Virus genome (UHGV): UHGV-0019417
Direction: 5' to 3' (one strand)
From: a virus
DNA: 51,928 nt
The position numbers and the translations under genes were made by a program. Each line of letters starts with the position of its first letter. The first letter of the stretch is position 1. The notes beneath the pieces were generated by a model that was not told where the DNA came from, did no database searches, and saw nothing but the letters and a program-made list of their open reading frames with translations. This document shows, piece after piece, positions 2,583 to 51,290 of the stretch.

Positions 2583-2638
2583 AATTTTTAATTTTTAATT
2601 TTTAATTTTGAACTTTAAGTTTTATTTTTTTATTTACA

Positions 2639-2735
2639 ATGCAAATATACTAATAAATATGTAAGCATAAAAATTTTTAGGCATAATAAATCAAAATAAA
2701 TTTAAGATTATTGTTAATAAGTATTTAAGCTAAAT
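2639..2735 (-). promoter_or_regulatory. class-B early promoter repeat, copy 2; -7 box is the reverse complement of 2642-2649
   Basis: ATGCAAATATACTAATAAATATGTAAGCATAAAAATTTTTAGGCATAATAAA... conserved with copy 1. Confidence 0.55.
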
Positions 2736-3058
2736 GCTGTTAAATTTTGGGCCCATTTGTGAAATAAGGTGTAGGGCCCTGTATATAAGTACTAGTACTC
2801 TGTCGCTCTCTTGCAAAAAAATTTTTAGACTATTCACCAAAATCGCTACAAATCTAAAAAAAATATAAATTTCTATTAAAGGTCAAAATATTTCTCAAAA
2901 ATAAAGCAGGCCCTTTCCAGGCTCGTTAATTTTTGTGAAATCTATCAAAATAAAAAATTAGATTGAATTTAGAATGGTTAAAAAATGTATAAAATAAAGC
3001 AGGCCCCCAGGCAAAAAAGTAGCTTTTGCTATTTACTCTTAGCAAAATTTATAGTTAC

Positions 3059-3525
3059 GAGAAACACAAACTTTTTTGAAAAGTACTGAATTTTTTTTAA
3101 ATTTCGCTCTAACTCATTGATTTTCAATACATTTCTTTTATATGAAAAAAATTCAGTAGAAACAATAATTTTCTTTGTTTCTCTTATTGTTTCTACGTAA
3201 CTCATTGAAAATCAACGACTTAGAGCGAGAGAAACAAAGGAAACAATACTCTCTAAACTTTCAGTGAGTCATTTGTTAAAAATAGAAAATAAATTTTAAC
3301 AATTACGCTCTAGAAAGTTTATAAAGTATTGTTTCCTTTGTTTCTCTTAAAATTTTCGCTCTAACTCATTGAAAATCAATGAGTTAGAGAGAAACAAAGG
3401 GAGAAACAAAGAAAATTCATTGTTTCTCTGAAATTTTTTATAGATTTGTAAAGCGTTGAAAATCAATGAGTTATGAGGCTTTATTGAAATTTTTTTTGTA
3501 CTTTTCAAAAAAGTTTGTGTTTCTC
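3059..3525. repeat. locus 1: about 467-bp imperfect palindrome bounded by 28-bp terminal inverted repeats (GAGAAACACAAACTTTTTTGAAAAGTAC); internal hairpins CTAACTCATTGAAAATCAATGAGTTAG and GAGAAACAAAG iterons
   Basis: 3059-3086 is the exact reverse complement of 3498-3525; multiple copies of CTCATTGATTTTCAA in both orientations; homologous to locus 2 at 28664-28940. Confidence 0.75.
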
Positions 3526-3629
3526 TGCTATACTGCTATTTTGTAAAAATGCTCTACAAATATATAAAATAATCTTAAAAATCTAAAATATATTAAAGCA
3601 ATGTAATTAAAGAAATTTAATATATTTTT

Positions 3630-3663
3630 ACTACAAATTTTAAAAAAAATATTGTATATTTGC
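3630..3663 (+). promoter_or_regulatory. Bacteroidota-type promoter (-7 TATATTTG at 3656-3663) for the packaging operon
   Basis: TGTATATTTGCAT about 25 nt upstream of ATG at 3688; the ATG at 3652 lies inside the box, so the ORF start is re-called to 3688. Confidence 0.5.
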
Positions 3664-3687
3664 ATTATCATTAAAAACAATAAAACT

Positions 3688-4425
3688 ATGAAACAAGAAG
3701 TAGTACACAGCCTAATTTCATCTTTGCTTCCAGAGCACGATGAATTAAATGAAAATTATAATTCTTCTGAAGATTTACAGAATGAAGTCCAACGAGTATC
3801 AGAAGAAAAAATACAAAAACAAAATGCAGCTACTCTGGCAAAATTAAAATTGCAAGAAAAGAAAAATATTGAAAAAATAAAAATGCAGGAAGCCAACCCT
3901 ACTTATGGCTTAAACAAAAAACAAAAAGAAAAACTCGAAAAAGAAAAGCAACAAACTTTACAAAATATAGCAGAACTTGAAGTAATAGAAGATTCACCTG
4001 AAGCACAGAATTTTTTATCAGGTGAAGGCCATTCTGATTTATCACCTTATGCAGGTACAACTAAAAGAGATGTTGTGAAGTTATTAGATTCATTAAATAT
4101 AAACCTTAATTTGTATTTAACTAGAACTGATACATATAATTTACTTTCATGCTTATTGACATGTAATGAAAATCAGTTAAATGCTTTATATAGTAATCCA
4201 CGTGTACCACTTGCAATAAAAACAGTAATAAAGCGATTAAAAGAAGATGCAAAACTCGGTAATGTAGAAACAATTGAAAGATTATGGGATAGAATTTTTG
4301 GTAAAACAAATGCAGCTATGCTTGAATTACCACAACAGAATCAATCATTACCTGGTATTATTCCAAATACAGTAGTTTCTCGTGAGGCTTATATGGTTAT
4401 TCGTGATACAATAATAGGTAAATAA
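3688..4425 (+). CDS. putative terminase small subunit
   Basis: 245-aa ORF immediately upstream of and abutting TerL; has a charged/coiled N-terminal half; assignment by position only. Confidence 0.35.
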   Translation: MKQEVVHSLISSLLPEHDELNENYNSSEDLQNEVQRVSEEKIQKQNAATLAKLKLQEKKNIEKIKMQEANPTYGLNKKQKEKLEKEKQQTLQNIAELEVIEDSPEAQNFLSGEGHSDLSPYAGTTKRDVVKLLDSLNINLNLYLTRTDTYNLLSCLLTCNENQLNALYSNPRVPLAIKTVIKRLKEDAKLGNVETIERLWDRIFGKTNAAMLELPQQNQSLPGIIPNTVVSREAYMVIRDTIIGK

Positions 4426-6017: not shown

Positions 6018-6041
6018 TATATAATAAATATATAAAAAAGT

Positions 6042-6081
6042 GTCTCCAGAGCTACTCTGAGCGCTCTGGAGACGCTTTTTT
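6042..6081 (+). terminator. rho-independent terminator after terL
   Basis: GTCTCCAGAGC ... GCTCTGGAGAC 11-bp stem followed by GCTTTTTT. Confidence 0.8.
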
Positions 6082-6164
6082 ATAAAAGTAATAAAAGTTA
6101 TCGTTAAAAATAAAAAGAGTTCTCAGAAATAAATTTTTGAAATTTTAATATTTTTTAAAACTTC

Positions 6165-27517: not shown

Positions 27518-27929
27518 AATAATTTTGCATTGCTCTGCTACGCCAGAGAATAAAAATTTTACAGTTGAAGATATTACAAAATGGCACAATGCTAAAGGAT
27601 GGGATGGATGTGGTTATCATTATGTTATTCATTTAGATGGCACAATACATAATGGCAGGCCTTTACAAAAGATTGGTGCACACTGCTTAGGCCACAATAC
27701 TAATTCTATCGGCATTTGCTATATAGGTGGAGTAGATAAAAATGGAAAACCAAAAGATACTCGTACTGATGCACAGAAAAAAGCATTAATCATTTTAGTA
27801 CATGAGTTACTTGTAAAATATAATCTTAAGCTTTATCAAGTGCATTGCCATTATGAATATGCAGCAAAAGCTTGTCCAAGCTTTAAAATAGAAGATTTTA
27901 AAAAAGATTACCAAAAAATTTTTAAATAA
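27501..27929 (+). CDS. endolysin, N-acetylmuramoyl-L-alanine amidase (Amidase_2/PGRP, T7-lysozyme-like)
   Basis: motifs IILHCSAT, GYHYVIHLDGTIHNGRP, GAHCLGHN, CPSF; Zn ligands H/H/C in canonical positions. Confidence 0.85.
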   Translation: MRKINEIILHCSATPENKNFTVEDITKWHNAKGWDGCGYHYVIHLDGTIHNGRPLQKIGAHCLGHNTNSIGICYIGGVDKNGKPKDTRTDAQKKALIILVHELLVKYNLKLYQVHCHYEYAAKACPSFKIEDFKKDYQKIFK

Positions 27930-28008
27930 TTTAAAAAATTATTCTAGGCTATTCTGAGAGGCTTTATTTTATAAAACGATAGTTTATATTACTTTTATGT
28001 AAAAGCTT

Positions 28009-28047
28009 CCCAGAATAGCCTAGAGTAGCTCTGGGACTATTTTTTTT
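28009..28047 (+). terminator. terminator after the endolysin
   Basis: CCCAGA ... TCTGGG stem followed by TTTTTTTT; a longer 13-bp outer stem CTAGGCTATTCTG/CAGAATAGCCTAG also present. Confidence 0.6.
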
Positions 28048-28060
28048 ATATGTATTTAAT

Positions 28061-28651
28061 ATGAAAGAAAAAATTATATATCTTTGTATATTTGTAGTTA
28101 TCATGATAGCTGCGTTTTTACATGAAAAAAATTATTTAAATACAATACATGAATTAAAGCAAACAAAAATAAGCTTACTTGATTCATTAGAACACTTTAA
28201 AATAAATGATAGCCTAAATGCAGTTACTACCAAATCATTATATTTGACAATAAATGATTTGAAAAAGTATAGAGCTGATGATTATAATTTAATTAAATCA
28301 TTAAAATCTAAAATTGGCTCAAATGAAACAAAAACAATAATCAAACCTGTAATAGAAAATCATACTAGGTTTACAACTCTATATGATACTGTTTATTTAG
28401 ATTCTATTAAAAGCTTCAAGTATAATAATAAATGGACAGATTTAAAAGGAACTGTTTATAAAGATTCAATATATATAGATATTAAAAACAAAGAAGAGTT
28501 AATCATAACAGAAAATCTTATTAAGAAAAAATTCTTGTTTTTTAAATTGCCAGTTAAGTTATTTGGTTACAAATCTAAAAATATATCAGTGATTAGCAAA
28601 AATCCAAATACAAACGTCATAAAAGTTGAGTATGTTAATATATCAAAATAA
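28061..28651 (+). CDS. membrane-anchored protein (N-terminal TM)
   Basis: 196 aa, signal-anchor IIYLCIFVVIMIAAFL; could be a spanin-like lysis accessory. Confidence 0.4.
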   Translation: MKEKIIYLCIFVVIMIAAFLHEKNYLNTIHELKQTKISLLDSLEHFKINDSLNAVTTKSLYLTINDLKKYRADDYNLIKSLKSKIGSNETKTIIKPVIENHTRFTTLYDTVYLDSIKSFKYNNKWTDLKGTVYKDSIYIDIKNKEELIITENLIKKKFLFFKLPVKLFGYKSKNISVISKNPNTNVIKVEYVNISK

Positions 28652-28663
28652 AATTGCAAATAA

Positions 28664-28940
28664 GGAAACAAAGAGAAACAAAGAGAATTTTTATTGTTTC
28701 TCTCTAAAGTGTTGAAAATCAATGAGTTAGAGCAAGAGAAACAAAGGAAACAATAATTTCTTAACTTTCGTGAGATAATATTTTTATACAAATATTAACA
28801 TAGAGGCTACTCTAGAAAGTTTATAAAGAATTGTTTCCTTTGTTTCTCTTGCTCTAACTCATTGATTTTCAACGCTTTAGAGAGAAACAATAAAAATTCT
28901 CTTTGTTTCTCTTGCTCTAACTCATTGATTTTCAATGCTT
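28664..28940. repeat. locus 2: near-perfect inverted repeat (arms about 75 bp) plus an extra tandem half-copy, with GAGAAACAAAG iterons and CTCATTGATTTTCAA hairpins; homologous to locus 1
   Basis: 28672-28747 is about 97% the reverse complement of 28830-28905; 34-bp unit TCTCTTGCTCTAACTCATTGATTTTCAAYGCTTT repeated at 28840 and 28907. Confidence 0.8.
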
Positions 28941-29045
28941 TAACATACTTTAACAAAATAATTTATGTTTATTCACTAAAAAAATTTTATTATTTAATAT
29001 ATAGTCATTACTTTTGCAGTAACAAATTAAAAAAATAAAGCTTAT

Positions 29046-29471
29046 ATGACAACTAACAATTTTACAATCGATGTTAATAAAATCATTGAGCATTATAATC
29101 TAGATAAAGATAAAGTTGCTGAGGCACTTTTTCCTAACAATAGATATAAGAAAATTGCTCTTGATAGAATTTTAACTGGAAAAGCTGTAATAGATGCAAA
29201 TCAGATAAATGCTTTATCTGATATGATAGGAGTATTACCTCAAGAATTATATATGATAAATAATTGGAGAGGAGAATTTGAAGATAAAAGTATTATTCTT
29301 AAACAAAATGAATATACTGCAAAGCTAAATCATAATGGAGCATTTTTATCTTTATATAAAAATAATGATTTGGTATATCAAGAAATAAATGCTTCAAATA
29401 TATCATTAAATGATTTGATTATTTACTTAGATAACTTAATTAAAAAATTACAAAACAATGGAACCCTTTAA
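29046..29471 (+). CDS. hypothetical protein
   Basis: 141-aa ORF, first gene after locus 2. Confidence 0.4.
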   Translation: MTTNNFTIDVNKIIEHYNLDKDKVAEALFPNNRYKKIALDRILTGKAVIDANQINALSDMIGVLPQELYMINNWRGEFEDKSIILKQNEYTAKLNHNGAFLSLYKNNDLVYQEINASNISLNDLIIYLDNLIKKLQNNGTL

Positions 29472-29787
29472 ATTTTCAATTGATGTAAACATTAATCTAC
29501 AAAGTGAATTAGCAGAAGTACTTAAACAATTTATTAAAGCACAATCCACTGCTGCTCCTGCTGCTCCTGCTGCTCCTGCTGCTCCTGCTGCTCCTGCTGC
29601 TCCTGCTGCTCCTGCTGCTCCTGCTGCTGAAATAACTATAAATGATGTACGCAAAGAATTAGCTAAAAAAGTTAATGAGCACCGTACAGAAATTAAAGAT
29701 AAGCTTATAGAATTGGGTGCACCATCAGTAACAAAACTTGATAAATCTAAATATCAGGAAATGCTTAACTTTTTAAATGCACTATAA
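29458..29787 (+). CDS. hypothetical two-domain protein with an (AAP)8 linker
   Basis: 109-aa ORF; 9-bp tandem repeat GCTGCTCCT x8 at 29551-29622. Confidence 0.4.
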   Translation: MEPFKFSIDVNINLQSELAEVLKQFIKAQSTAAPAAPAAPAAPAAPAAPAAPAAPAAEITINDVRKELAKKVNEHRTEIKDKLIELGAPSVTKLDKSKYQEMLNFLNAL

Positions 29788-31717: not shown

Positions 31718-31912
31718 AAAGTCCTTTTTTAATTCCTATATTCTCATTTATTAACCTTTAAAAAACGCATATTGCCGTATGCACTTAATAAGAGACAAGC
31801 CTAAATTTTAAACAACAATGATTGCTATTTTATAAAAAATAATGTTTTATAAATAACAAAAAAAAATAGTGAAGTGTTTCTTTTTTGCAATTATAAAATA
31901 GCAATCATATAT

Positions 31913-31998
31913 GCCTCAGTGGTGAAAGTGGTAGACACGAAAGACTTAAAATCTTTTAAACAGAAATGTTTGTGCAGGTTCGAATCCTGTCTGAGGTA
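31913..31998 (+). tRNA. tRNA-Leu (anticodon UAA), type II with a long variable arm
   Basis: acceptor GCCTCAG/CTGAGGT (G1-U72), D-arm GTG-AAAGTGGTAGA-CAC, anticodon arm AAAGA-CTTAAAA-TCTTT, 17-nt variable hairpin, T-arm GCAGG-TTCGAAT-CCTGT, discriminator A. Confidence 0.8.
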
Positions 31999-32020
31999 CA
32001 AAATTCTAAGATTAATTTAT

Positions 32021-34069
32021 ATGTATAAAGATTTATTTATTGATATTGAAACATATTCATCAGTTGATATTAAATCGTGTGGTGCTTATAAGTATATAGA
32101 ATCACCTGATTTTGAAATTTTGATTATTGGATATGCTTTTGACAATGAAGAAGTGCAATCTATTGATTTAGCTTCAGGTGATGAAATTCCAGAAGAATTT
32201 GAGGAAGCTTTATTTAATCCAAATATAAAAAAGCATGCACATAATGCTGTATTTGAAAGAAATGCTTTTAAAAGAATAGGATATGATATTCCTGTTGAAC
32301 AATGGTATTGTACACTTGTTAAATCAGCATATTGTGGATTACCATTAGGATTGGATGCTGTTTCAAAAGTTCTTGATTTACAAGATAAAAAATTAGATAC
32401 AGGTAAGGCTTTAATAAAATATTTTAGTTGCCCATGTAAGCCAACTAAAGTAAATGGAATGCGTACAAGAAATTATCCATGGGATGCTTCTGAAAAATGG
32501 GATATGTATATTGAGTATAATAAATATGATGTACTATCTGAAAGAGAAATATATAGGTTATTAGAAAAATACGACATTCCAGAATTTGAAAGAAGCCTAT
32601 ATATACTTGACCAAAATATTAATGATAGAGGAATCTTAATTGATACAGAATTAGCAGAATCTGCTATTTATGTCGATGAAAAATATACTGAAATGCTTAT
32701 GAATGAAAGTAAGCAAATCACAAATCTTGAAAATCCTAATTCTGTAGCTCAATTAAAAAAATGGTATGCTGAAAACTATGCTGATATCGTTGATAGTACA
32801 CTTACAGAAAATGATAAAAAGTTTTTAGCTACTGCTAATGGACAAACTTATGACCCAGCAAATCAATCCATGGCTGCTGAATCAATAAAAATGCTTTTAA
32901 AACTAGAAGCTGTACAATCTATTCAAGAATTAGTAACAGTTCTTGAAAATAGACAAAAGTTAGGTCGTTCATCAGTTAAAAAATATTATACAATGCTTAA
33001 CTGTAAAATGTCTGATGAACGTATAAGAGGCACATTTCAGTTTTATGGAGCTAATAGAACTGGTCGATGGGCAGGAAGGTTAGTGCAATTGCAAAACTTA
33101 TCAAAAAATCATACAGATGATATAGATACACCAAGAGAGTTAATACGAAAAAGAGATTGGGATACTGTAAATATGATGTATGGTGATGTTTCAGATATTT
33201 TATCACAATTAGTTAGAACAACATTTATTGCTCCTGATAATATGCTTTATTCAGTAGCTGACTTCTCTGCAATTGAAGCTAGAGTAGTATCATGGTTAGC
33301 TGATGAAGAATGGAGAATGAACGTCTTCAGAGGTGATGGAAAAATATATGAAGCAGCAGGTTCTCGTATGTTTAATGTACCTATTGAAGCAATTACAAAA
33401 GGTTCTGATTTAAGAGCAAAAGCTAAAAATGCAGAATTAGCACTCGGATATGGTGGCTCATTAGGTGCAATGAAACGTATGGGTGGTGATAAAATGGGTA
33501 TGAGTGATGCTGAAATGATGCACATTGTAAAGTTGTGGAGAAATGCAAATAAAAATATTGTAAATCTCTGGTCTGAAATAGAACGATGCGCACATGAAGC
33601 AGTAAGGTATAACAGAAAAGTTATTGGAACTCCACAAAATCTTGAATTTGATTGTAATGGAGATTATTTAATGATAACCTTGCCATCAAAAAGAGCATTG
33701 TATTATTATAAGCCTGTTTTTAAAGAAAAGAAAGTTGGACAAAGAACATCAAAACTTTTGTTTTACCAAGGTATGAACCAGGTAACAAAGCAGTGGGGAT
33801 TGATTGATACTTATGGTGGAAAATTAACAGAGAATATAGTACAAGCTATTTCAAGAGATTTAATTGGCTTTGCAATGAAGAATCTTGAAGAAAATGAATA
33901 TGCTATAACAATGCATGTACATGATGAAGCAATTGCAGAAATACCTGCTGATAATCCAACTGAAAAACTGAATAAAATGATAAAGATTATGTCTCAACCA
34001 CCAGAATGGGCAAAAGATTTACCATTAAATGCAGCAGGGTTTATCAGTAAATATTATATGAAAGATTAA
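32021..34069 (+). CDS. DNA polymerase, family A (3'-5' exo plus polymerase domains)
   Basis: Exo I FIDIETYS; motif A DFSAIEARV; motif B RAKAKNAELALGYGG; motif C HVHDE. The ORF-track start at 31874 overlaps the tRNA; start re-called to ATG 32021. Confidence 0.85.
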   Translation: MYKDLFIDIETYSSVDIKSCGAYKYIESPDFEILIIGYAFDNEEVQSIDLASGDEIPEEFEEALFNPNIKKHAHNAVFERNAFKRIGYDIPVEQWYCTLVKSAYCGLPLGLDAVSKVLDLQDKKLDTGKALIKYFSCPCKPTKVNGMRTRNYPWDASEKWDMYIEYNKYDVLSEREIYRLLEKYDIPEFERSLYILDQNINDRGILIDTELAESAIYVDEKYTEMLMNESKQITNLENPNSVAQLKKWYAENYADIVDSTLTENDKKFLATANGQTYDPANQSMAAESIKMLLKLEAVQSIQELVTVLENRQKLGRSSVKKYYTMLNCKMSDERIRGTFQFYGANRTGRWAGRLVQLQNLSKNHTDDIDTPRELIRKRDWDTVNMMYGDVSDILSQLVRTTFIAPDNMLYSVADFSAIEARVVSWLADEEWRMNVFRGDGKIYEAAGSRMFNVPIEAITKGSDLRAKAKNAELALGYGGSLGAMKRMGGDKMGMSDAEMMHIVKLWRNANKNIVNLWSEIERCAHEAVRYNRKVIGTPQNLEFDCNGDYLMITLPSKRALYYYKPVFKEKKVGQRTSKLLFYQGMNQVTKQWGLIDTYGGKLTENIVQAISRDLIGFAMKNLEENEYAITMHVHDEAIAEIPADNPTEKLNKMIKIMSQPPEWAKDLPLNAAGFISKYYMKD

Positions 34070-34074
34070 GTATT

Positions 34075-36456
34075 ATGAATGTTAAATATGATATAAATTT
34101 AGACATAGCGACTGCTCTTAGTGGTAATAGTAAAAAATGGAAAAATATAAAAACCAAATGGAGTAAGCTACTCGATAAATTATCAAATCCAGTAATTACA
34201 AATGAAACATATAAACAGTTTATTACAGCTACAAAAGCCGAGCAAGGAAAAATAAAAGATGTAGGTGGATACGTAGGAGGGTATTTATTAAATGGAAGCA
34301 GAAAAAAAGAAGCTGTATCATATAAGCAACTCATTACTCTTGATATTGATTTTTCTCACTGTGATTTTTGGGATGACTTTACTATCTTATACAGTTGTGC
34401 AGCATGTATACATTCAACCCATAAATCAACACCTTCTAAGCCTAGGCATAGATTAATAATACCACTAGATAGAGAAGTTTCAGTTGAAGAGTATGAACCA
34501 ATAGCTAGAAAAATAGCAGGAGACTTAAACATAGAGCTGTTTGACCAAACAACATTTGAAGTAAACAGATTAATGTTTTGGCCATCAGTTTCTAAAGATA
34601 CTAAATATTATTTTGAATATCAAGATGGTCCTATTTTAAGTGCTGATGATATTTTAAATTCTTATAATGATTGGCATAACATAAATGAATGGCCACATGC
34701 TAGCTCGATTGAGTCTTCTGTTTTATCAGAAATAAAAAAACAAGAAGACCCATCAGAGAAAAAAGGAATAATTGGTGCTTTTTGTAAAGCTTACAGCATA
34801 AATGAAGCAATAGAAACTTTTTTGAATGATGTTTATGAAGAAGCAGGAGAAGATAGGTATACATATACAAAAGGAACAACTGTAGCAGGCCTTATCGTTT
34901 ATGATGATAAGTTTGCTTATTCTCATCATAGTACTGACCCAGCTAGTAATAGGCTATGCAATGCTTTTGATTTAGTTCGTATACACTTATTTGGCCATTT
35001 AGATTCTGGAACAGAAAAAGATGACAGAAGTAAAAAGAGCTTTAAAAAAATGGAAGAGCTTATCATTAATGATAAGAAGACAAAAAAGCTCATAGCTGAA
35101 GAAAAACTTGTATTAGCTAAATCAGAATTTGGTGAACCAGTTGAGCAAGATAATATTGAATGGACAGAAAGCTTACAGATTAATTCAAAAGGAGATTACG
35201 AAAATTCTTCAATTAACTTAAATTTAATTCTTAAAAATGACAATATTCTTAAAAATGCTTTTGTAACAAACCAATTTGACCACATGCGCTATGTGCTAAA
35301 AGATTTACCTTGGCGTAAACTTGAAAGCTATCCTGATAATATGCTTGATGTTGATTATTCTGGTATAAGAAACTATATTGAGTGTGTATATGGTATTACA
35401 GCAAGTCAGAAAATTGATGATGCAATAGCAATTGAGTGTCAAAGAAAAAACTTTCATCCAGTAAGAGAATATTTAAATAATTTAAAATGGGATAAAGTAA
35501 ATAGAATTGATACACTGTTAATCGATTATTTTGGAGCTGACGACAATGCTTATACAAGAGCTGCTATTAGAAAAGCTTTATGTGCGGCTGTAGCTCGTAT
35601 AATAGAACCAGGGTGTAAATATGATATGGTTTTAATTCTTGTTGGTCCACAAGGAACATATAAAAGTACATTTGTAAAAAAACTTGGTAAAAATTGGTTT
35701 TCAGATACTTTTACGACAGTCCAAGGTAAAGAAGCTATTGAGCAATTATTAGGTTCATGGATTATTGAAATAGCTGAGTTATCAGCTTTTAAAAAATCTG
35801 AAGCTGAAGCTATTAAACAGTTTATTTCAAAACAACAGGATAAGTTTAGACCAGCTTATGCTCGTACTGTTGAAGTTTATAAAAGGCAATGTATATTTTT
35901 TGGTACAACAAATGATACAGATTTTTTAAGAGACCCGACAGGAAATAGACGTTTTAATCCTATTGATATTCACGTTGAAAGAATTAAAAAATCTGTAATT
36001 GATGATTTAACAGAAAACGAAATAGACCAAATATGGGCCGAAGCTTTTGAGCTTTATAAAGCTGGAGAAAAGCTTTATTTTGATGAAGAAGTTACTCAAT
36101 TAGCTAAAACTGAACAGTCAAAGCACTCTGCTACAGATGAACGAAAAGGCGTTATTGAAAATTATTTAAATAAATTATTACCAAAGGATTGGGATAAAAA
36201 AGATTTATATGAACGTAGAACATGGTTGGATGACCCATTGGCAAGTAATGGCGAAATAATACGTGACAGCGTTTGCATATCAGAAATCTGGTGTGAATGT
36301 TTAGGAAAAGAAAAAAATGATATGACGCGCTATAATACAAGAGAAATTAATGATATAATGCGCTCATTAGATGAATGGGAGTTTACATCTTCTACAAAGC
36401 AATTTAACTTTTATGGCAAACAAAAATATTACAAAAGAAAAACTGATTTATGGTAA
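34075..36456 (+). CDS. primase/helicase, VirE / D5-like P-loop NTPase
   Basis: 793 aa; Walker A LVGPQGTYKST; large N-terminal primase-like domain; typical partner of the DUF2800-PolA module. Confidence 0.65.
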   Translation: MNVKYDINLDIATALSGNSKKWKNIKTKWSKLLDKLSNPVITNETYKQFITATKAEQGKIKDVGGYVGGYLLNGSRKKEAVSYKQLITLDIDFSHCDFWDDFTILYSCAACIHSTHKSTPSKPRHRLIIPLDREVSVEEYEPIARKIAGDLNIELFDQTTFEVNRLMFWPSVSKDTKYYFEYQDGPILSADDILNSYNDWHNINEWPHASSIESSVLSEIKKQEDPSEKKGIIGAFCKAYSINEAIETFLNDVYEEAGEDRYTYTKGTTVAGLIVYDDKFAYSHHSTDPASNRLCNAFDLVRIHLFGHLDSGTEKDDRSKKSFKKMEELIINDKKTKKLIAEEKLVLAKSEFGEPVEQDNIEWTESLQINSKGDYENSSINLNLILKNDNILKNAFVTNQFDHMRYVLKDLPWRKLESYPDNMLDVDYSGIRNYIECVYGITASQKIDDAIAIECQRKNFHPVREYLNNLKWDKVNRIDTLLIDYFGADDNAYTRAAIRKALCAAVARIIEPGCKYDMVLILVGPQGTYKSTFVKKLGKNWFSDTFTTVQGKEAIEQLLGSWIIEIAELSAFKKSEAEAIKQFISKQQDKFRPAYARTVEVYKRQCIFFGTTNDTDFLRDPTGNRRFNPIDIHVERIKKSVIDDLTENEIDQIWAEAFELYKAGEKLYFDEEVTQLAKTEQSKHSATDERKGVIENYLNKLLPKDWDKKDLYERRTWLDDPLASNGEIIRDSVCISEIWCECLGKEKNDMTRYNTREINDIMRSLDEWEFTSSTKQFNFYGKQKYYKRKTDLW

Positions 36457-38131: not shown

Positions 38132-38179
38132 TTGAAAATTTAGAAAAAGGTTAATTATTAACTGGTCTTGCTATTGTAA

Positions 38180-38295
38180 AAAAATACAAAAAATCAAGAT
38201 TAATGCTATTTAACTGAATTATTACAAAAATTAACAGAAAAAATTTTATTGCTGAGTAAAAAATTATTATATTTGCAGTGTTAAAATAAAGCAAG
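38180..38295 (+). repeat. 115-bp direct repeat R1 (gene 3'-end fragment plus promoter), paired with R2 at 40010-40125
   Basis: AATACAAAAAATCAAGATTAATG...TTATTATATTTGCAG about 95% identical to R2; in R2 the first 24 nt are the real C-terminus (EYKNQD*) of the DUF3310 gene. Confidence 0.8.
38231..38275 (+). promoter_or_regulatory. promoter with upstream TTAACAG motif (-7 box TATATTTG at 38268-38275)
   Basis: TTAACAG at 38231-38237, exactly 30 nt upstream of the -7 box; same spacing at 40049/40086, 47154/47191, 49045/49082. Confidence 0.5.
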
Positions 38296-38319
38296 TAATA
38301 ATTTTAAAGTTAAGTAAAA

Positions 38320-39261
38320 ATGGAAAGAAAATATAAGCTAACTGATAAGCACATTCAATATAATAGGCACAAACTTTATCGAATACAGGCTCTTAAGTCT
38401 TTCGCTGATGTTAAAGAGGGAGATTTTGGTGGATACATAGAATCAGAGGATAATCTCTCGCATAATGGGACGTGTTGGGTCTATGATAATGCTGTGGTAT
38501 ACGACAATGCTAAAGTATTCGATAGTGCTAATGTATTTGGTAATGCTGTGGTATATGGCAATGCTGATGTACTTAATAATGCTGAGGTTTATAATACAGC
38601 TGAAGTATATGGCAATGCTAAAGTATATGGCAATGCTAAAGTGTATGGTTGTGCTGAGGTACATCGTAATGCTGAAGTGTATGGCTACGCCGAAGTGTAT
38701 GGTAATGCTGAAGTATATGATAATGCTGAAGTATGTGGCAATGCTAGAATCTGTGGTGATGCTAAGATATATGACTATGCTTGGGTCTATGGCAATGCTA
38801 AAATCAGTGGTGATGCTAATATCTATGATTATGCTAGAATCTGCGGTGATGCATATATTTTAGAAAATGCTAAAGCCTGTGACCACGTTAAGGTAAGTGG
38901 ATATGCTGAGATACGTGGCTATGCTAAGGTATACGGTATTGCTAAAGTACGTGGTGATGCTAAAGTATATGGTTATGCTGAAGTACATGGTAATGCTGAG
39001 GTATATGGCCATGCTGAAATGTACGGTAATGCTGCAGTCTGTGAAAATACTGATTACATAGTATTTAAAAACTGGTGGAGCAGCGGGCGATATTTCACAT
39101 GGACACGTAGTAATAATATGTGGAAGGTAGGATGTTTTTATGGTACAGGAGAAGAGCTAATAATGAAAGCATATAATGATAGTAAAGAAAGTGGAAGAGA
39201 ATACGAACGAGTTGTAAAATATGTTGAAAGCATACTTGCTGATGATAATTACGCAGAATAA
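38320..39261 (+). CDS. hexapeptide-repeat (predicted beta-helix) protein with C-terminal globular domain
   Basis: about 30 consecutive xVYGNA(E/K) hexads (aliphatic at i, small at i+4), encoded by 18-bp DNA tandem repeats 38480-39060; C-terminal 90 aa non-repetitive. Confidence 0.6.
   Translation: MERKYKLTDKHIQYNRHKLYRIQALKSFADVKEGDFGGYIESEDNLSHNGTCWVYDNAVVYDNAKVFDSANVFGNAVVYGNADVLNNAEVYNTAEVYGNAKVYGNAKVYGCAEVHRNAEVYGYAEVYGNAEVYDNAEVCGNARICGDAKIYDYAWVYGNAKISGDANIYDYARICGDAYILENAKACDHVKVSGYAEIRGYAKVYGIAKVRGDAKVYGYAEVHGNAEVYGHAEMYGNAAVCENTDYIVFKNWWSSGRYFTWTRSNNMWKVGCFYGTGEELIMKAYNDSKESGREYERVVKYVESILADDNYAE
38480..39060 (+). repeat. 18-bp coding tandem repeat array GTRTATGGYAATGCTRAR
   Basis: about 32 imperfect units in frame within the 38320..39261 CDS. 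Confidence 0.8.
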
Positions 39262-39652: not shown

Positions 39653-40021
39653 ATGATTGAAGTATTAAACAAAGAAGTAGGAGGCGTGCATTATAAAAAC
39701 ATGAAAATGCAACCAATAGAATTGATTGTAAAAACAGATTTAAATTTTATACAAGGTTGCATAGTTAAATATATAACAAGATATAAAAATAAAAATGGTA
39801 AAGAAGATATTGAAAAAGCTATACACAATGCTCAATTAGCTATTGATTTACATTCAAATGGGCCAGATGATTGTATAAATGAAGGCTATGCGTATTGTAA
39901 AATAAATAAGCTTTCAAATTTACAAACAACAGTAATTATTTCTGCAATGCAAAATGATTATTACAAAGTAATAAAATATTGTTATAATATTTTAAAAAAT
40001 GAATACAAAAATCAAGATTAA
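39653..40021 (+). CDS. DUF3310-family protein
   Basis: 122 aa; N-terminal VHYKNMKMQPIELI matches the DUF3310 HY...QPIE signature common in phage nucleotide-metabolism regions. Confidence 0.45.
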   Translation: MIEVLNKEVGGVHYKNMKMQPIELIVKTDLNFIQGCIVKYITRYKNKNGKEDIEKAIHNAQLAIDLHSNGPDDCINEGYAYCKINKLSNLQTTVIISAMQNDYYKVIKYCYNILKNEYKNQD

Positions 40022-40048
40022 TGTTATCTAACTGAATTATTACAAAAA

Positions 40049-40093
40049 TTAACAGAAAAAATTTTATTGCTGAGTAAAAAATTATTATATTTG
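40049..40093 (+). promoter_or_regulatory. promoter with TTAACAG motif (-7 box at 40086-40093), inside repeat R2
   Basis: same architecture as 38231-38275. Confidence 0.5.
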
Positions 40094-40140
40094 CAGCATT
40101 AAAATAAAGCATTTATAACTTTTAAAATCAAAACAAAAAA

Positions 40141-41910
40141 ATGACTACAAACAACAATTATTTGCTAATTACACTAGGCCACAACTCATCTGCATTATTT
40201 ATTGATAACACAAACGGGTGTGACCAAAAAATTATTGGCTATGAACAAGAAAGACTTTCAAGAATTAAATCTGATAGCCAATTTCCATTTGATGCAATCA
40301 ATGAAATTAAAAAGCATGTACCATTTTCTAAATTAGAGGGATGCCAAATACGAATTTCTCACTGGTTTGATGACTTTCTTCCTTCTAGCAATAAGTATAT
40401 TGGTGAAAATGGATTCAGAATGCTAAAAGAAATTTCTACAAATATTGTAGATACTAATGGCAATGGCTTTACACACCATGACGCTCACGCTTATAGTGCA
40501 TATAATTTTATGCTAGAATCGAATACTGATTTGAAGTATTTTAACAAACCAATATATTGTATTGTAGCAGATGGTTTTGGTAATCAGCAAGAAGTTTTTT
40601 CAATTTACGCATTTACACCAAATATTGATACAAAACCAAAGTGTATTTTTAAATCCTACGGCTATTATCAATCTCTTGGTTTGATGTACCAATTTGCAAC
40701 ATCATTTGTTGGAATGAAAGAAAACCAAGATGAATATAAATTTTTAGGATATGAATCACATATCGCTGAAGTTTTAAGTGAGCAACAAATTGCAATGCTA
40801 ACATCTGTTGCTGAATTTGATTCTGACAAAATGATAAAAAGAATAAAAGAGTGCACAGAAAAAATTCAAATTTCAGATATTGATAAAAATATTGGAATCA
40901 GTATTTCTGATTTAGATAAAGCTCGAGATTTATTCAATCATTTATTCTCAAGAGTTTTTAAACATTTAGGCATTGATAAAGATAATAATATTCATATTTC
41001 AAGAGTTATAATGGGATATTATGTACAATGCATCATAGAATCTGTTATTACTAGCTTTATTGATGAATATGAAATGAATAATGTCTGCGTTGCTGGTGGA
41101 TGTTTCTACAATGTAAAATTAAACAATTCAATACTTGAAGCAATAGATGGTTATTTTAGTGCTATGCCTTTAGCAGGAGACCAAGGAGCAGCAATAGGAA
41201 TGTATGCAAAAGAAGTCGGATTTAATTCTAATATTTCTATTAAGTTTAATACGCTGAATTTTGGTAAAAGAAATTTCTATAATGCAGACAAACTAGTATC
41301 TAAAATAAACAATGCATATTATTTTACAAACAGTAAATATGCAGCTATGGCAATATCAGATTTTATTTCAAATGATTGTATTGTTAATATAATACATAAT
41401 GATATGGAATTTGGTCCAAGAGCATTGGGGCATACTTCAACTTTATTTTTGCCAACAGAAGAAAATGTGGCATTTGTAAATTATATAAATAACAGAAATG
41501 AAGTTATGCCATGTGCACCTATATGTACAATTGGAAGTGCTCATGATTTATTTGACATCTATGAATTATCAAGGACAGTCGGTTCTGATAGATTTATGAT
41601 TTGTACACATAAGTATATGAGAAAATATAATAAGCTTTATGGTGGTGTAATGCATAAAAAACCTTTGATTAAAGATTATACTGGAAGACCACAAATTGTA
41701 ACAAAAAATGAAAATTTCTTATATACAATTCTAGAATCTGTTAAAAAAGATACAGGCTATACATGCTTAGTTAATACTAGTTTTAATGTACATGGCCAAC
41801 CTATTGTATTTGATATACACAGTATTATTCAGAATTTTATGTATCAGCAAGCACAAACTTATACGCATAAATTCAATAAAAAAGTTGTATTGGTAATTAT
41901 TAATGATTAA
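40141..41910 (+). CDS. carbamoyltransferase, NodU/CmcH/TobZ family (Kae1-like N-domain plus YrdC-like C-domain)
   Basis: 589 aa; N-terminus LLITLGHNSSALFID....IIGYEQERLSRIKSDSQFPFDAI matches the carbamoyltransferase N-terminal signature (LG.HDS..AL...G....A..EER..R.K.D..FP). Confidence 0.65.
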   Translation: MTTNNNYLLITLGHNSSALFIDNTNGCDQKIIGYEQERLSRIKSDSQFPFDAINEIKKHVPFSKLEGCQIRISHWFDDFLPSSNKYIGENGFRMLKEISTNIVDTNGNGFTHHDAHAYSAYNFMLESNTDLKYFNKPIYCIVADGFGNQQEVFSIYAFTPNIDTKPKCIFKSYGYYQSLGLMYQFATSFVGMKENQDEYKFLGYESHIAEVLSEQQIAMLTSVAEFDSDKMIKRIKECTEKIQISDIDKNIGISISDLDKARDLFNHLFSRVFKHLGIDKDNNIHISRVIMGYYVQCIIESVITSFIDEYEMNNVCVAGGCFYNVKLNNSILEAIDGYFSAMPLAGDQGAAIGMYAKEVGFNSNISIKFNTLNFGKRNFYNADKLVSKINNAYYFTNSKYAAMAISDFISNDCIVNIIHNDMEFGPRALGHTSTLFLPTEENVAFVNYINNRNEVMPCAPICTIGSAHDLFDIYELSRTVGSDRFMICTHKYMRKYNKLYGGVMHKKPLIKDYTGRPQIVTKNENFLYTILESVKKDTGYTCLVNTSFNVHGQPIVFDIHSIIQNFMYQQAQTYTHKFNKKVVLVIIND

Positions 41911-41916
41911 GCAAAA

Positions 41917-42576
41917 ATGAAAAAGCTATATACTCCATACATTGTAGCTTTTTCTGGTGGTTGTTTTTCTGGTAAAACAACCACCATTAAAAAAATTGCT
42001 GAAAAATTAAGGCAACTTGGCTATACTGTATATGTTTTAAATGAAAATATAAGGGACAAAAATGTATTTAGAAAAGCAGGTAATATAGATAATATTAGGC
42101 AAGACCCGAATTCTTATTTGCTTTTACAAAATGAAATAATAAGAGAAAAAATAGAAAATGAAAATGAAATATTGGGAGTTAAATACACTACTAAAACTAT
42201 AATTTTAGTTGATAGGGCTTTAACTGATTCATTGTTTTATTTATCATGCTATGTTGACAAAGTTAATCTAACACTAGAAAATAAAAAAACATTTAAGCAT
42301 CTGTTTAGTTATATTTATATGATTCTTTTACTCAGTAAAAGGTATGATAAAGTATTAGAATTTAGGCCTATAAAAATTGAAAATATCGATAAATACAGGC
42401 CTAAAGATTTAGAGCATTTGCACTTTTTTGAGTATGAAATGATTCATTGCCTTAACAATAATTTTTTTGATAAAAGCATTATGGAAAAAAATATAAACAT
42501 AAAGCAAGAAAGCTGTATAGATAATTTAGTAAATAATATAATAAGAGATTATGCAATTAAACAACGAACAAATTAA
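41917..42576 (+). CDS. P-loop kinase, deoxynucleotide/deoxynucleoside-kinase-like; candidate modified-dNMP or 5-hmdU DNA kinase
   Basis: Walker A AFSGGCFSGKTTT; DRA lid-like motif (VDRALTD). Confidence 0.5.
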   Translation: MKKLYTPYIVAFSGGCFSGKTTTIKKIAEKLRQLGYTVYVLNENIRDKNVFRKAGNIDNIRQDPNSYLLLQNEIIREKIENENEILGVKYTTKTIILVDRALTDSLFYLSCYVDKVNLTLENKKTFKHLFSYIYMILLLSKRYDKVLEFRPIKIENIDKYRPKDLEHLHFFEYEMIHCLNNNFFDKSIMEKNINIKQESCIDNLVNNIIRDYAIKQRTN

Positions 42577-43333
42577 AAATTTAATAACATCTCCACATTG
42601 GCAAAAAATATTTAAGCAATTATATAATTCAAAAAATTCAGAAAATGATAGCTGTTTTGAGTTAATCGGATTTCAATATTCATTTAACCCACGAAAAAAT
42701 TATATAATATCAAGAAATAAATTAGTTTTTGATATAGAGAAAGCTGCAAAAATGTATTATTGGTATAAAAATAAAAACAGTAGTGATAAATCAATAATTG
42801 ATAGCTTTCCTGAATATGAAAATTGTTTTTATGGAGGAAAATTTTTAAGTAAACAAAAATGCAATTCTAATTATGGAATATATGCATATAATAAAAATGG
42901 ATTAGATTTTTGTATTGAAAAGTTAAAAGCAAATTATAAAACAAGGCAAGCTTGCTTTTGTATAAATAATAATAAAGCAATGTCTTCACCAGATAAACTT
43001 TGTACAAATACAATTCATTTTAATATAAAAAATGAGAGACTGATTATGGTTATACAAATGAGGTCATCAAATTTTTTAACTTTACTTCCTTATGATATTT
43101 TTAACTTTACAATTTTTTATGCTTATGTGTATGAAGCTTTAAGAGATTATTATTTTAATTTGAAAACGTGCGATATTGTAATGCAAATAAACTCATTGCA
43201 CTGTTATACAAAAGATTTAATAAAAGCTATTGGTATAAAAGATTTATCTTATCCAAATAATCTTTTAAGCTTTTCTGTTAAAAAAATAATAAATAATTTT
43301 GAAAATAATTTAAAAAGATGCAACGAACAATGA
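42551..43333 (+). CDS. divergent ThyA-family protein (thymidylate synthase / pyrimidine hydroxymethylase fold)
   Basis: IQMRSSNFLTLLPYDIFNFTIFYA aligns to ThyA QRSxDxFLGxPFNIASYALL; Cys in QACFC aligns to PCH; the residue at the ThyA Asn177 position is not Asn/Asp. Confidence 0.5.
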   Translation: MQLNNEQIKNLITSPHWQKIFKQLYNSKNSENDSCFELIGFQYSFNPRKNYIISRNKLVFDIEKAAKMYYWYKNKNSSDKSIIDSFPEYENCFYGGKFLSKQKCNSNYGIYAYNKNGLDFCIEKLKANYKTRQACFCINNNKAMSSPDKLCTNTIHFNIKNERLIMVIQMRSSNFLTLLPYDIFNFTIFYAYVYEALRDYYFNLKTCDIVMQINSLHCYTKDLIKAIGIKDLSYPNNLLSFSVKKIINNFENNLKRCNEQ

Positions 43334-43839
43334 CACCAGGAAAATTTAGATTTACAAAAGTACGTGATGTAAAATCACCAGTTAGAGGTACAAACTTATC
43401 TGCTGGTATTGATTTTTTTGTACCAAAAGATTTTAAGCCATTTGTTCTTTTGCCACATAAGGATGTGTTAATCCCGTCTGGTATTAAAGCCTCATTTGAA
43501 AAAGTTTGTATGCTAATGGCAGCAGAAAAATCAGGCGTAACAAGCTCAGCTGAAGCAAAAGCTATTTCTAATATGGATGCTAATAATTCATACCAATCAC
43601 CTACAGTTTTAGGAGCAAAGATTGTTGATGCAGATTATCAAGGAGAAATACACATCCACATTATAAATGTAGGTAATAAACCTATTCTTATTGAGCCAGA
43701 CAAGAAAATAGCTCAGTTTATTTTAGTGCCTGTTTTATATTGCGAAATTGAAGAGATAGATTCAGAAAAAGAATTGTTCGCAAATGAATGCTCTTCTCGT
43801 GGTAACAAAGGTTTTGGTAAAGGAACTGGTGAAAATTAA
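43318..43839 (+). CDS. dut: dUTPase (trimeric dUTPase/dCTP-deaminase superfamily)
   Basis: motif I SAGIDF, motif III GAKIVDADYQGE, motif IV IAQFILVPV. Confidence 0.8.
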   Translation: MQRTMTPGKFRFTKVRDVKSPVRGTNLSAGIDFFVPKDFKPFVLLPHKDVLIPSGIKASFEKVCMLMAAEKSGVTSSAEAKAISNMDANNSYQSPTVLGAKIVDADYQGEIHIHIINVGNKPILIEPDKKIAQFILVPVLYCEIEEIDSEKELFANECSSRGNKGFGKGTGEN

Positions 43840-43844
43840 ATGAT

Positions 43845-44297
43845 ATGACAATTGGAAAAGCTTTAGAGTTAGTAGACACTCCTGTATTTTTGCAGAATGT
43901 TGAAAAATACTTAAATAAATGGCTATATTTAGCTAAATTGCCCAATGGGCCGTTAGGAAGATGGCTTTGTGAATATCAGCAAATGGAAGATAAAGGATTA
44001 TTTAAGCCTGCTATCTTTAAAGCTTTTTATAAATTAGAATTGCAAAGCAAGTTAAATATAGGCTTTATAAAAAGTTGTCCAGTTCATTATGTTGGTGTAT
44101 ATGCTATGGATGATACATATTTATATTATAGCTTACGAGAGCATAGTTATAAAATATGTGTTATTACAGGAGAAATAGCATGTGATGATGATGGTGATGA
44201 TTTAATAGGTTTATCTTATGATGAAGCTAAAGAAATTTGTGATTCTATGAATATTGAAGCTGAAGAAAAATTATTTAAAATAATGGTAAATGATTAG
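43845..44297 (+). CDS. hypothetical protein
   Basis: 150-aa ORF inside the nucleotide-metabolism cluster; acidic C-terminus. Confidence 0.4.
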   Translation: MTIGKALELVDTPVFLQNVEKYLNKWLYLAKLPNGPLGRWLCEYQQMEDKGLFKPAIFKAFYKLELQSKLNIGFIKSCPVHYVGVYAMDDTYLYYSLREHSYKICVITGEIACDDDGDDLIGLSYDEAKEICDSMNIEAEEKLFKIMVND

Positions 44298-44949
44298 TCT
44301 AATATGTAAAAATGCTACAGAAGCTTTTGAGATATTGTATGAAACAATTTCAAGAGTTGGCCAATCTACTAATATAGATACAAAAGCTATTTATAATGTA
44401 AGTATTGAAATACAAAATCCAACCGATAGAAATATAACAACACATTGGAGAAAATGGAGTAAAAAATATGCTGAAAGAGAATGGAACTGGTATTTATCAG
44501 CAAATCCTTCTGTACAAGAAATTAAAAAGTTTGCTCCTATGTGGGATAAAATGCACAGCGGAAATAATATTGTAAATTCAAATTATGGCTTCCAATGGTC
44601 AAGAAACAAGCAACTACAAAAAGTAATTGAACAACTACAAAAAAATCCTAATTCTCGTCAAGCATGGATTACTATCTACGATGGAAAAGAAAAAGATAAT
44701 TATGATTTTGATACACCTTGCACATTAGCTGTAGGATTTGATATAAAGCCAAATAGCGAATCAGTTGATATGACAGTGTGTATGAGGTCAAATGATTTAA
44801 TATATGGATTTTGTAATGACCAGTATTGTTTTAGTAAATTACAAGAATATGTAGCTCATCTTTTAAACAGGCCAGTTGGAACATATACTCATTTTGCACA
44901 TGACATGCATATTTATAATAATAAACTTAACTTAAAAAATTATGAATAA
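44290..44949 (+). CDS. ThyA-family enzyme, uracil-type (thymidylate synthase or dUMP hydroxymethylase)
   Basis: YGFQWS, NPNSRQAWITIY, catalytic DTPCTL (PCH equivalent), MRSNDLIYGFCNDQYCF (QRSxD..G.PFN), HIYNN with Asn at the ThyA N177 position; short at 219 aa. Confidence 0.75.
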   Translation: MISLICKNATEAFEILYETISRVGQSTNIDTKAIYNVSIEIQNPTDRNITTHWRKWSKKYAEREWNWYLSANPSVQEIKKFAPMWDKMHSGNNIVNSNYGFQWSRNKQLQKVIEQLQKNPNSRQAWITIYDGKEKDNYDFDTPCTLAVGFDIKPNSESVDMTVCMRSNDLIYGFCNDQYCFSKLQEYVAHLLNRPVGTYTHFAHDMHIYNNKLNLKNYE

Positions 44950-46966: not shown

Positions 46967-47040
46967 GATTATTTTTGGAATTATTTTTAATTCTGTGATG
47001 ATTTTATTATAAAAACGTATTATAAATCGCCTTTATATTT

Positions 47041-47082
47041 AAAACGTCTCCAGAGCGCTCAGAATAGTCCTGGAGACGTTTT
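47041..47082. terminator. bidirectional intrinsic terminator
   Basis: AAAACGTCTCCAG ... CTGGAGACGTTTT: 9-bp stem flanked by an A-run and a T-run. Confidence 0.7.
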
Positions 47083-47153
47083 AAATCTTTTCATTAGCTA
47101 CTTTTCAATTAAAATTTAAAAATTAATGATTTTAAACAGTTAATTAATAATCA

Positions 47154-50225: not shown

Positions 50226-50380
50226 TAGTTAATCACAAACAATTGGATTAATTTGTTTTGCTAACATAATTTTAGGTTAAAGCTGACTGCCTGTGAAGGT
50301 CGTCAGCTTTTATTTTGTTTCTTTGTATATAAATTTGGTTTTTATTTATTTTATAATTAAAGAATATATAAAATGAGTTC

Positions 50381-50475
50381 TGTGAGCTACTCTGAGCGCT
50401 CTGGAGATGCTTTTTTATTTTTGACGATAACTTTTATTACTTTTATATAAAAACGTCTCCAGAGCGCTCAAAATA
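50381..50475. terminator. terminator region between the convergent rightward late and leftward early transcription units; contains degenerate copies of the GTCTCCAGAGCGCTC terminator family
   Basis: AGCTACTCTGAGCGCTCTGGAGATGCTTTTTT matches the 3' half of the terL terminator; 50448-50475 matches the left arm of the 47041 terminator. Confidence 0.45.
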
Positions 50476-50571
50476 GCTAATATTTCCAAATATATCTAAT
50501 GTTAAACGAGGTTTTTTATACAAACATAAAAATAAGCCAAGCAAACTATTTTCTAGTATGCTTGGCTTAAA

Positions 50572-51166: not shown

Positions 51167-51290
51167 AATTTTAGGGTTGTTTTATGTTCTAGGCAATGTC
51201 GCCTATTGTTCCCTATAGCAGATTCGAACTGCTCTACTTTCGTATCCACCCAACTGTGGCTAGGGATATAAGCCTAATTAGACTTATTAA
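51167..51290 (-). repeat. class-A leader repeat copy (d); tRNA-like core at 51211-51265
   Basis: CATAATTTTAGGGTTGTTTTATGTTCTAGGCAATGTCGCCTATTGTTCCCTATAGCAGATTCGAACTGCTCTACTTTCGTATCCACCCAACTGTGGCTAGGGATATAAGCCT, near-identical to copies b and c. Confidence 0.8.

Follow-up and report, generated by a model that had tools for sequence, protein, structure and literature searches.

In the 51,928-nucleotide virus genome UHGV-0019417 (the whole of this stretch is referred to here as the window), two noncoding loci about 25 kb apart, locus 1 (3059 to 3525) and locus 2 (28665 to 28943), are homologous to each other, as a preliminary description of this DNA had recognized, and are built from the same two types of short site. 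We consider it very likely that both loci are co-evolving protein-binding arrays. We further favor, with moderate confidence, the view that the primase-helicase of this phage binds the two loci and that they act as replication origins. The preliminary description had raised paired origins, or an origin paired with a packaging (pac) site, among several possibilities; paired origins are the best-supported reading, and no positive evidence was found for the origin/pac pair. Because both loci use identical site types, two sites of one kind are likelier than an origin plus a pac site.

Locus 1 is a 467-bp imperfect palindrome with its mirror axis near position 3290. Its ends carry the 28-bp terminal inverted repeats noted previously: the right outer arm (3498 to 3525, minus strand) is the exact reverse complement (100%) of the left outer arm (3059 to 3086, plus strand), which opens with the iteron variant GAGAAACACAA. 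This 28-mer, GAGAAACACAAACTTTTTTGAAAAGTAC, occurs at two places in the window, both of them ends of locus 1, and shuffled sequences led us to expect 0.01 occurrences. The interior is imperfectly palindromic, as described earlier; when locus 1 was aligned with its own reverse complement, the whole of 3059 to 3525 aligned at 76% identity (E = 5e-85), and folding as single-stranded DNA gave one end-to-end hairpin of -135 kcal/mol, compared with -45.6 ± 4.2 kcal/mol for shuffled sequences (z = -21.5). The modules that had been named were also present. With up to one mismatch, GAGAAACAAAGG had nine matches, all inside the two loci (0.35 expected), and with up to three mismatches, matches to the 25-nt hairpin core TAACTCATTGAAAATCAATGAGTTA (3362 to 3386) were confined to the two loci; the module CTCTAGAAAGTTTATAAAGWATTGTTTCC is found at 3308 to 3336 in locus 1 and at 28811 to 28839 in locus 2. 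The noncoding gap around locus 1, correctly put at about 1 kb, extends from 2583 to 3687 (1,105 bp) and separates small minus-strand open reading frames (ORFs) from an operon of TerS-like, TerL, portal, and head genes to the right. The repeats themselves account for the ORFs listed within locus 1 (3029 to 3205 and 3347 to 3508, both on the minus strand), which are by-products. The left part of the gap (2740 to 3010) holds small structured repeats of its own that have no counterpart in locus 2, namely, a GGGCCC...GGGCCC hairpin at 2750 to 2780 and two copies of AAAATAAAGCAGGCCC (2898 to 2913 and 2991 to 3006).

Locus 2 is a more perfect palindrome than locus 1. Its 104-nt arms (28671 to 28774 and 28810 to 28913) are 93% complementary, and its DNA fold differed from that of shuffled sequences with a z of -24.0. 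It is located after the last late gene (DUF6549) and before the replication operon, which encodes ORF1, a DUF2800 exonuclease, a Gp2.5-like single-stranded DNA-binding protein (SSB), PolA, the primase-helicase, a VRR-NUC protein whose gene overlaps the end of the primase-helicase gene, and an SNF2 helicase. The direct-orientation homology between the two loci had been estimated at about 150 bp; the homology stands, and its length is revised to about 215 bp (3184 to 3397 versus 28691 to 28890, 75.6% identity). The loci also align in the inverted orientation (74.7% identity), because both are palindromes. In each, the modules follow the same order: an inverted iteron, a palindrome, two tandem iterons pointing toward the centre, the AT-rich centre, and then the mirror image of this series. 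A search of the whole window with Rfam at gathering thresholds yielded one tRNA outside the loci and no RNA family at the loci; plant microRNA hairpin models returned by a permissive Rfam scan of both strands scored far below threshold and were set aside as an artefact of the palindromes.

The first site type is an asymmetric iteron with the consensus AGAGAAACAAAG, often arranged in tandem at 9- to 12-bp spacing and present 12 times in locus 1 (six copies per strand) and 9 times in locus 2. The two loci make up about 0.8 kb of the 51.9-kb genome and contain 19 of its 37 GAAACAA heptamers and 14 of its 15 GAGAAACA octamers. Left of the centre of locus 1, an inner tandem pair, GAGAAACAAAG-GAAACAATA (3229 to 3248, plus strand), is directed at the centre, and a mirror-image pair occupies 3327 to 3346 (minus strand) on the right. 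The other locus 1 iterons start near 3059, 3157, 3389, and 3401 on the plus strand and are found near 3173, 3185, 3418, and 3515 on the minus strand. Interleaved with the iterons is the second site type, the 27-bp palindrome CTAAnnnRTTGAAAATCAAYnnnTTAG; locus 1 contains four of these, and locus 2 contains three (28704 to 28730, 28854 to 28880, and 28917 to 28943). The copy at 3361 to 3387, CTAACTCATTGAAAATCAATGAGTTAG, is a full perfect hairpin, and sequence matching placed degenerate copies at about 3109 to 3135, 3197 to 3223, and 3448 to 3474. A stand-alone palindrome core, TGTATTGATTTTCAATGAT, lies in a different noncoding gap in the early region (832 to 858), with iterons absent nearby; such a lone core would fit a palindrome that acts as an operator in its own right.

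Each pair of arms encloses an AT-rich spacer. The centre of locus 1 (3263 to 3312), a candidate unwinding region, and that of locus 2 (28775 to 28809) both have a GC content of about 0.20 and are local minima of duplex stability; the centre of locus 2 is also its segment least conserved among close relatives. The least stable DNA of each gap is immediately to the right of its locus and continues into a -7 box of the Bacteroidota type. The tract beside locus 1, from 3540 to 3680 (GC content of 0.07 to 0.15; instability in the 96th to 100th percentile), includes the -7 box TATATTTG at 3655 to 3662, before the ATG at 3688; the tract beside locus 2 (28945 to 29016, plus strand) is likewise AT-rich and ends in a conserved -7 box, TACTTTTG (29009 to 29016), before ORF1.

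Searching 50,697 deposited phage genomes by blastn with both loci gave no match, so relatives were reached through their proteins. The family so delineated is a large group of gut Bacteroidota-type phages that includes Bacteroides phage BF503P1. In IMG/VR, TerL relatives were plentiful (63 loci), and contigs of about 50 kb from this family number more than 100. Among cultured phages, the nearest are the Bacteroides fragilis phage BF503P1 and its relatives (TerL identity of 69%), and the annotation of the closest cultured isolates consists almost entirely of hypothetical proteins. The exact motifs of the window were not conserved in the relatives, where the architecture is kept with a different repeat unit. 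Near the offset of locus 1 from TerL, a 250- to 300-bp palindrome was found in six relatives (L003, L011, L012, L020, L029, and L045), and the examined DNA had its densest iteron cluster 1.3 to 2.5 kb upstream of TerL in about 30 of 40 loci. At the position of locus 2, essentially all of about 70 exonuclease loci have a gap of about 350 bp that is enriched in (A/G)(G/T)AAACAA(T/A), and the locus 2-type gaps of relatives contain an approximately 150-bp palindrome in which both strands bear iterons. The iteron unit is lineage specific: it is TGGAAACA in L039 and L068, GTGTAACAAA in L011, GTAAACA in L029, TGTCGGAACA in the distant lineage represented by L151 and L152, and CATTTTRCYA in BF503P1, six of whose seven genome-wide sites fall within its two homologous loci, located at about 300 to 750 and about 28000 to 28300. 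In every genome in which both loci could be examined, the unit was identical at the two. L011 additionally carries, at 680 to 1200, about 55 tandem copies of the 9-bp sequence CCA(T/G)AACAG.

The replication-operon element of L151 and the TerS-like/TerL-operon element of L152 are paralogous (76% identity over 271 bp), and the replication genes of the two genomes are syntenic, at 93% identity. Given these elements and the loci of the other relatives, the two-locus design is a family trait, of which the loci in the window are enlarged, more symmetrical versions. Footprinting was carried out among close relatives (ORF1 identity of 69 to 91%, with L167 the most diverged): in the comparison with L167, iterons were 97% identical and the -7 box was 100% identical, and the centre of locus 2 was 40% identical yet AT-rich. 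Substitutions in the palindrome flanks of close relatives were mirrored on both arms, and L163 lacks exactly one 63-bp iteron-palindrome module.

The candidate iteron binder is the primase-helicase (34075 to 36456, plus strand), a 793-amino-acid protein with a VapE-like domain. It is a homologue of Rep1, the self-loading initiator-helicase of the Staphylococcus aureus pathogenicity island (SaPI) SaPI1; residues 375 to 722 matched the Rep1 structure (PDB 7pds_A) with an E value of 1.6e-74. The Pfam VapE-like domain PF05272 was detected at 2.2e-84, together with PHROG primase/helicase families. Its C-terminal domain (approximately residues 700 to 793, encoded at 36172 to 36453, plus strand) is predicted to be a canonical winged helix, with the putative recognition helix RYNTREINDIMRS and wing FNFYGKQKYYKR. 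In an AlphaFold model of residues 620 to 793, the predicted local distance difference test score (pLDDT) was 83 overall and above 90 in the C-terminal domain, which has an H-beta-H-H-beta-beta topology. When this model was searched with Foldseek, the top six matches were the six chains of 7pds (E values of 4e-7 to 1e-5, probability of 1.0), in alignments of 170 to 190 columns that covered the whole query, including the C-terminal domain; generic winged-helix DNA-binding domains came next. Separately, Foldseek listed weak matches between the C-terminal domain and GTAAACA-bound forkhead domains (E of about 0.4); in view of the GTAAACA-like iterons we note these as a curiosity and did not use them as evidence. 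Wherever the AAACA iteron core is kept, so are the putative recognition helix (RYNTREINDI) and the wing (YGKQKYY); both differ in BF503P1 (helix RFNSRGIA) and in L151/L152, genomes whose iteron also differs. Searches for further sequences had small yields, with two loci from a single-protein search with the exonuclease and seven from a two-sequence primase-helicase alignment.

SaPI Rep proteins are self-loading initiator-helicases that bind iterons through a C-terminal winged-helix domain, and SaPI origins have 6 to 12 iterons about a central AT-rich region, at least two per side and in opposite directions, onto which two hexamers load themselves (PMC9371898). Both loci in the window have this layout, with a converging tandem pair on each side of the centre. 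By analogy with the SaPI Rep proteins, the C-terminal winged-helix domains of the phage helicase would read the converging iteron arrays, and one helicase hexamer would assemble on each arm. Melting would follow, either in the AT-rich centre or in the extremely AT-rich tract of the right flank; the helicase would then load with no help from a loader and prime synthesis with its own N-terminal primase domain, so that replication would start at these sites and both loci would be able to fire. ORF1 dimers on the interleaved palindromes may modulate origin firing, the promoters past each locus, or both.

ORF1 (29046 to 29471, plus strand; 141 amino acids), the first gene of the replication operon, encodes a predicted XRE/Cro-type helix-turn-helix (HTH) protein and is the candidate binder of the 27-bp palindrome. 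Its model (pLDDT of 88) consists of an N-terminal five-helix HTH, then a beta unit, and then a long helix, and the first 60 or so residues superpose at 2.2 to 2.7 Å on XRE/Cro/CI HTH domains, including those in operator complexes. Pfam gave HTH_19 only (E of 0.19). The palindrome TTGAAAATCAAT and ORF1 occur together in the window, BF503P1, L068, and L124, and both are missing from L151. The ORF1 HTH is nearly identical in BF503P1 and in phages with AAACAA-type iterons despite the unrelated iterons, which argues against ORF1 as the reader of the iteron. ORF1 co-occurs with the palindrome and the C-terminal domain of the helicase changes with the iteron, so ORF1 appears to track the palindrome and the C-terminal domain to track the iteron. 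None of the interleaved 27-bp palindromes overlaps a -7 box, and these sites probably serve as operators to which the XRE-like ORF1 protein binds as a dimer. The preliminary description had suggested two operator clusters for one regulator, and this probably applies to the 27-bp palindromes, which track the XRE-like HTH protein encoded beside locus 2. The second gene past locus 2 (29458 to 29787) varies in length, encoding 94 to 120 amino acids among otherwise near-identical strains of different metagenomes, apparently from a short internal tandem duplication (a perfect 26-nt repeat, 29549 to 29574 and 29603 to 29628).

Several points weigh against the view that the helicase binds the loci as origins and ORF1 binds the palindromes. 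SaPI, SCCmec, and Abitsa-type origins are single and are located beside the rep gene; here there are two loci, and they are distant, with locus 2 lying 5.1 kb upstream of the primase-helicase gene and locus 1 about 30 kb away from it. The centres are only moderately AT rich (86th to 92nd percentile), and the most unstable DNA is outside the palindromes. Both loci are always directly upstream of operon promoters, which a purely regulatory role would fit equally well. The GC skew of the window was monotonic and gave no origin signal; it is uninformative here because nearly all genes are on one strand. The covariation of recognition helix and iteron consists of a few independent contrasts (BF503P1 and L151/L152) and is confounded with overall divergence. 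For ORF1, the structural matches of the HTH were weak (E of 0.1 to 0.4), and a sequence profile of ORF1 compared with the PDB gave no useful match. For the whole phage group, the proposed binding and initiation at the loci rest on sequence and models, and a literature search on the BF503P1-type phage group found no publications and no experimentally mapped origin.

A more elaborate version of the origin reading, which we regard as possible but doubtful, is that the two loci form an origin/operator switch in which the helicase and the XRE-like protein would both bind both loci, replication initiation would be physically coupled to the timing of the two operons, and both loci would be required. 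If this were true, the coupling would resemble that by the T antigen of simian virus 40 (SV40), and the need for both loci would resemble that of P4 ori/crr or of oriL/oriS of herpes simplex virus (HSV). It would also be a family trait, shared within an abundant group of Bacteroidota-type phages of the gut, one that persists while iteron and winged-helix specificity co-evolve.

The loci could instead be purely regulatory, that is, operator or enhancer clusters that coordinate the packaging/structural and replication operons without any replication start, bound by ORF1 and/or another factor, perhaps the helicase in a purely repressive role. Both loci are indeed 65 to 170 bp upstream of the TAnnTTTG promoter boxes of plus-strand operons, a placement kept even in the distant L151/L152 lineage, and the predicted XRE-type HTH protein ORF1 is encoded beside locus 2. 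The stand-alone palindrome in another regulatory gap (near 840) and the other duplicated promoter cassettes of this genome fit such a role as well. However, converging asymmetric tandem arrays with 9- to 12-bp spacing about an AT-rich spacer follow the grammar of origins and not that typical of HTH operators, and the arrays are well upstream of the -7 boxes, with no overlap. Moreover, the ORF1 HTH is unchanged where the iteron changes, L151 retains an iteron array without an ORF1 homologue, and the replicative helicase is the one protein of the genome with a relative demonstrated to bind iterons. We therefore judge a purely regulatory role unlikely.

Within the reading that the helicase binds origins, it is also conceivable that only one locus is a true origin and that the other is an auxiliary cis site, such as a looped partner like P4 crr or a site for handcuffing or copy control. 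In P4, both ori and crr are needed by the alpha protein, which is a primase-helicase whose C terminus forms a winged-helix domain. A common iteron was present at both loci in every genome examined, as such a pair would have, and the two positions differed in how widely they were occupied: locus 2 was found in essentially all of the approximately 70 relatives, and a strong locus 1 cluster (above the 99th percentile) was found in 17 of 40. Both loci in the window, however, are fully two-armed with an AT-rich centre, and each is seemingly competent alone. We hold this arrangement to be quite unlikely.

It is highly improbable that the small terminase recognizes locus 1 as a pac site, with locus 2 serving as a further site or a decoy. 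Locus 1 does lie about 160 bp upstream of the TerS-like and TerL genes, and repeated elements bound by terminase are common in pac and cos sites. However, locus 2, whose site types are identical, stands at the start of the replication operon and was detected in essentially all relatives that were examined; a second, mid-genome pac site would yield two packaging series; the iteron grammar fits Rep origins; and the TerS identity of the ORF at 3688 to 4425 is unproven, its only family match being a PHROG of unknown function. Finally, the suggestion that a miniature inverted-repeat transposable element had inserted at two sites, which the perfect 28-bp terminal inverted repeats and the lack of coding capacity had invited, is effectively refuted: the flanks of locus 1 (...TATAGTTAC| and |TGCTATACT...) contain no direct repeat and so no target-site duplication, locus 2 lacks the 28-bp ends, no transposase was evident among the ORFs scanned, and a 20-mer common to the two loci had only eight isolated chance matches in 185,579 prokaryotic species genomes, a collection that possibly does not include the host. 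These matches were in unrelated taxa, including archaea, and each had 20 to 29 nt in common with the element and none with the remainder. The orthologous positions of the loci in dozens of related phages, together with the diverged repeat unit, indicate vertical inheritance rather than insertion.

If the loci are helicase-bound origins, their closest known counterparts are the SaPI Rep/PriRep origins (SaPI1 Rep1, PDB 7PDS; SaPI5 PriRep5). The helicases are homologous, with a fused primase as in PriRep5 and a C-terminal winged-helix domain that is predicted for the phage protein; both systems have short iterons of lineage-specific sequence in two opposed sets flanking an AT-rich region. In contrast with SaPIs, which have one such locus immediately downstream of rep, each phage genome has two loci, neither of which adjoins the helicase gene. 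The phage units are 7 to 11 nt long, compared with 5 to 6 in SaPIs, and the phage arms are extended into palindromes of 240 to 470 bp interleaved with 27-bp palindromes. The replicon also differs: it is an approximately 52-kb gut phage that has Bacteroides fragilis phages as relatives, and not a Gram-positive satellite. Since they are duplicated, palindromic, equipped with a second site type, and not downstream of rep, the phage loci are not members of the SaPI origin family. In the Enterococcus phage Abitsa (Efquatrovirus), an origin was called in silico for a PriRep5-like self-loading helicase (PMC13517437). Abitsa thus resembles the present case as a tailed phage with a helicase of this type and an origin likewise assigned in silico, but it has a single origin near a genome terminus and no long palindrome, duplicated locus, or interleaved operator-type palindromes. 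P4, with its ori, crr, and alpha protein, is similar in having a primase-helicase initiator with a C-terminal winged helix and two separated cis sites with the same iteron. In P4, about 4.5 kb separates ori from crr, and neither is a long palindrome, whereas the sites here are about 25 kb apart and each heads an operon. In HSV oriL/oriS and the SV40 core origin, initiator sites are inverted about an AT-rich spacer and lie between promoters, and the SV40 initiator also regulates transcription. Multiple homologous palindromic origins are a further likeness, but the initiator families of these eukaryotic viruses are unrelated or distantly related to that of the phage, so the parallel is one of design and not of membership.

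A number of other features of the genome were observed in passing. A family of repeats of about 85 to 240 bp is located upstream of small minus-strand early ORFs (51051 to 51288, 51470 to 51715, and 563 to 684). The end and start of the window (51885 to 51928 joined to 1 to 84) form a further copy, and this copy across the junction shows that the window is a circular assembly. The early repeat unit includes a T-arm-like sequence, GCAGTTCGAATCTGC, on the minus strand, where ARAGORN and Rfam call no tRNA. A tRNA-Leu (anticodon TAA) is encoded at 31913 to 31999, between the genes for the Gp2.5-like SSB and PolA; the listed GTG-initiated ORF at 31874 to 34069 overlaps it, so the real polymerase start must be further downstream. 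Other intergenic repeat families were considered as alternative origins and rejected as promoter or terminator cassettes without iterons. Direct repeats at 38172 to 38308 and 39988 to 40126 are 90% identical and resemble duplicated promoter cassettes, each having a terminal TATATTTG -7 box directly before an ATG. A GC-rich terminator-like hairpin with a T run follows TerL (6031 to 6084), and related copies occur at other operon boundaries (50363 to 50478, 27913 to 28056, and 47032 to 47102). The ORF at 38320 to 39261 contains several internal repeats about 126 bp apart with 65 to 75% identity (38479 to 39053) and has strong matches to PHROGs of unknown function. A gene cluster at 39653 to 44949 suggests DNA base hypermodification; it includes nucleotide kinases and genes for a Nol-like carbamoyltransferase (40141 to 41910), two ThyA/dCMP-hydroxymethylase-like proteins (42551 to 43333 and 44290 to 44949), and a dUTPase-like protein (43318 to 43839).

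The proposed mechanism is a familiar one; what calls for explanation is the conserved two-locus design, with one locus heading the packaging operon and the other the replication operon. The ~52-kb phage recurs in gut metagenomes from many samples, and the assignment made here gives concrete candidates for the origin, the initiator, and the regulator of a family that is recurrent in such metagenomes. It would extend the SaPI-type origin served by a self-loading helicase to Bacteroidota-type phages. In practical terms, the long palindromes of the two loci are a possible source of assembly and cloning artefacts, and the loci might serve as minimal replicons or as incompatibility determinants when Bacteroides phages are engineered. 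Duplicated loci with shared, lineage-specific iterons may offer a natural system for the study of co-evolution of initiator and origin specificity, and the two-locus design would also suit the study of a possible coupling between replication and late expression.

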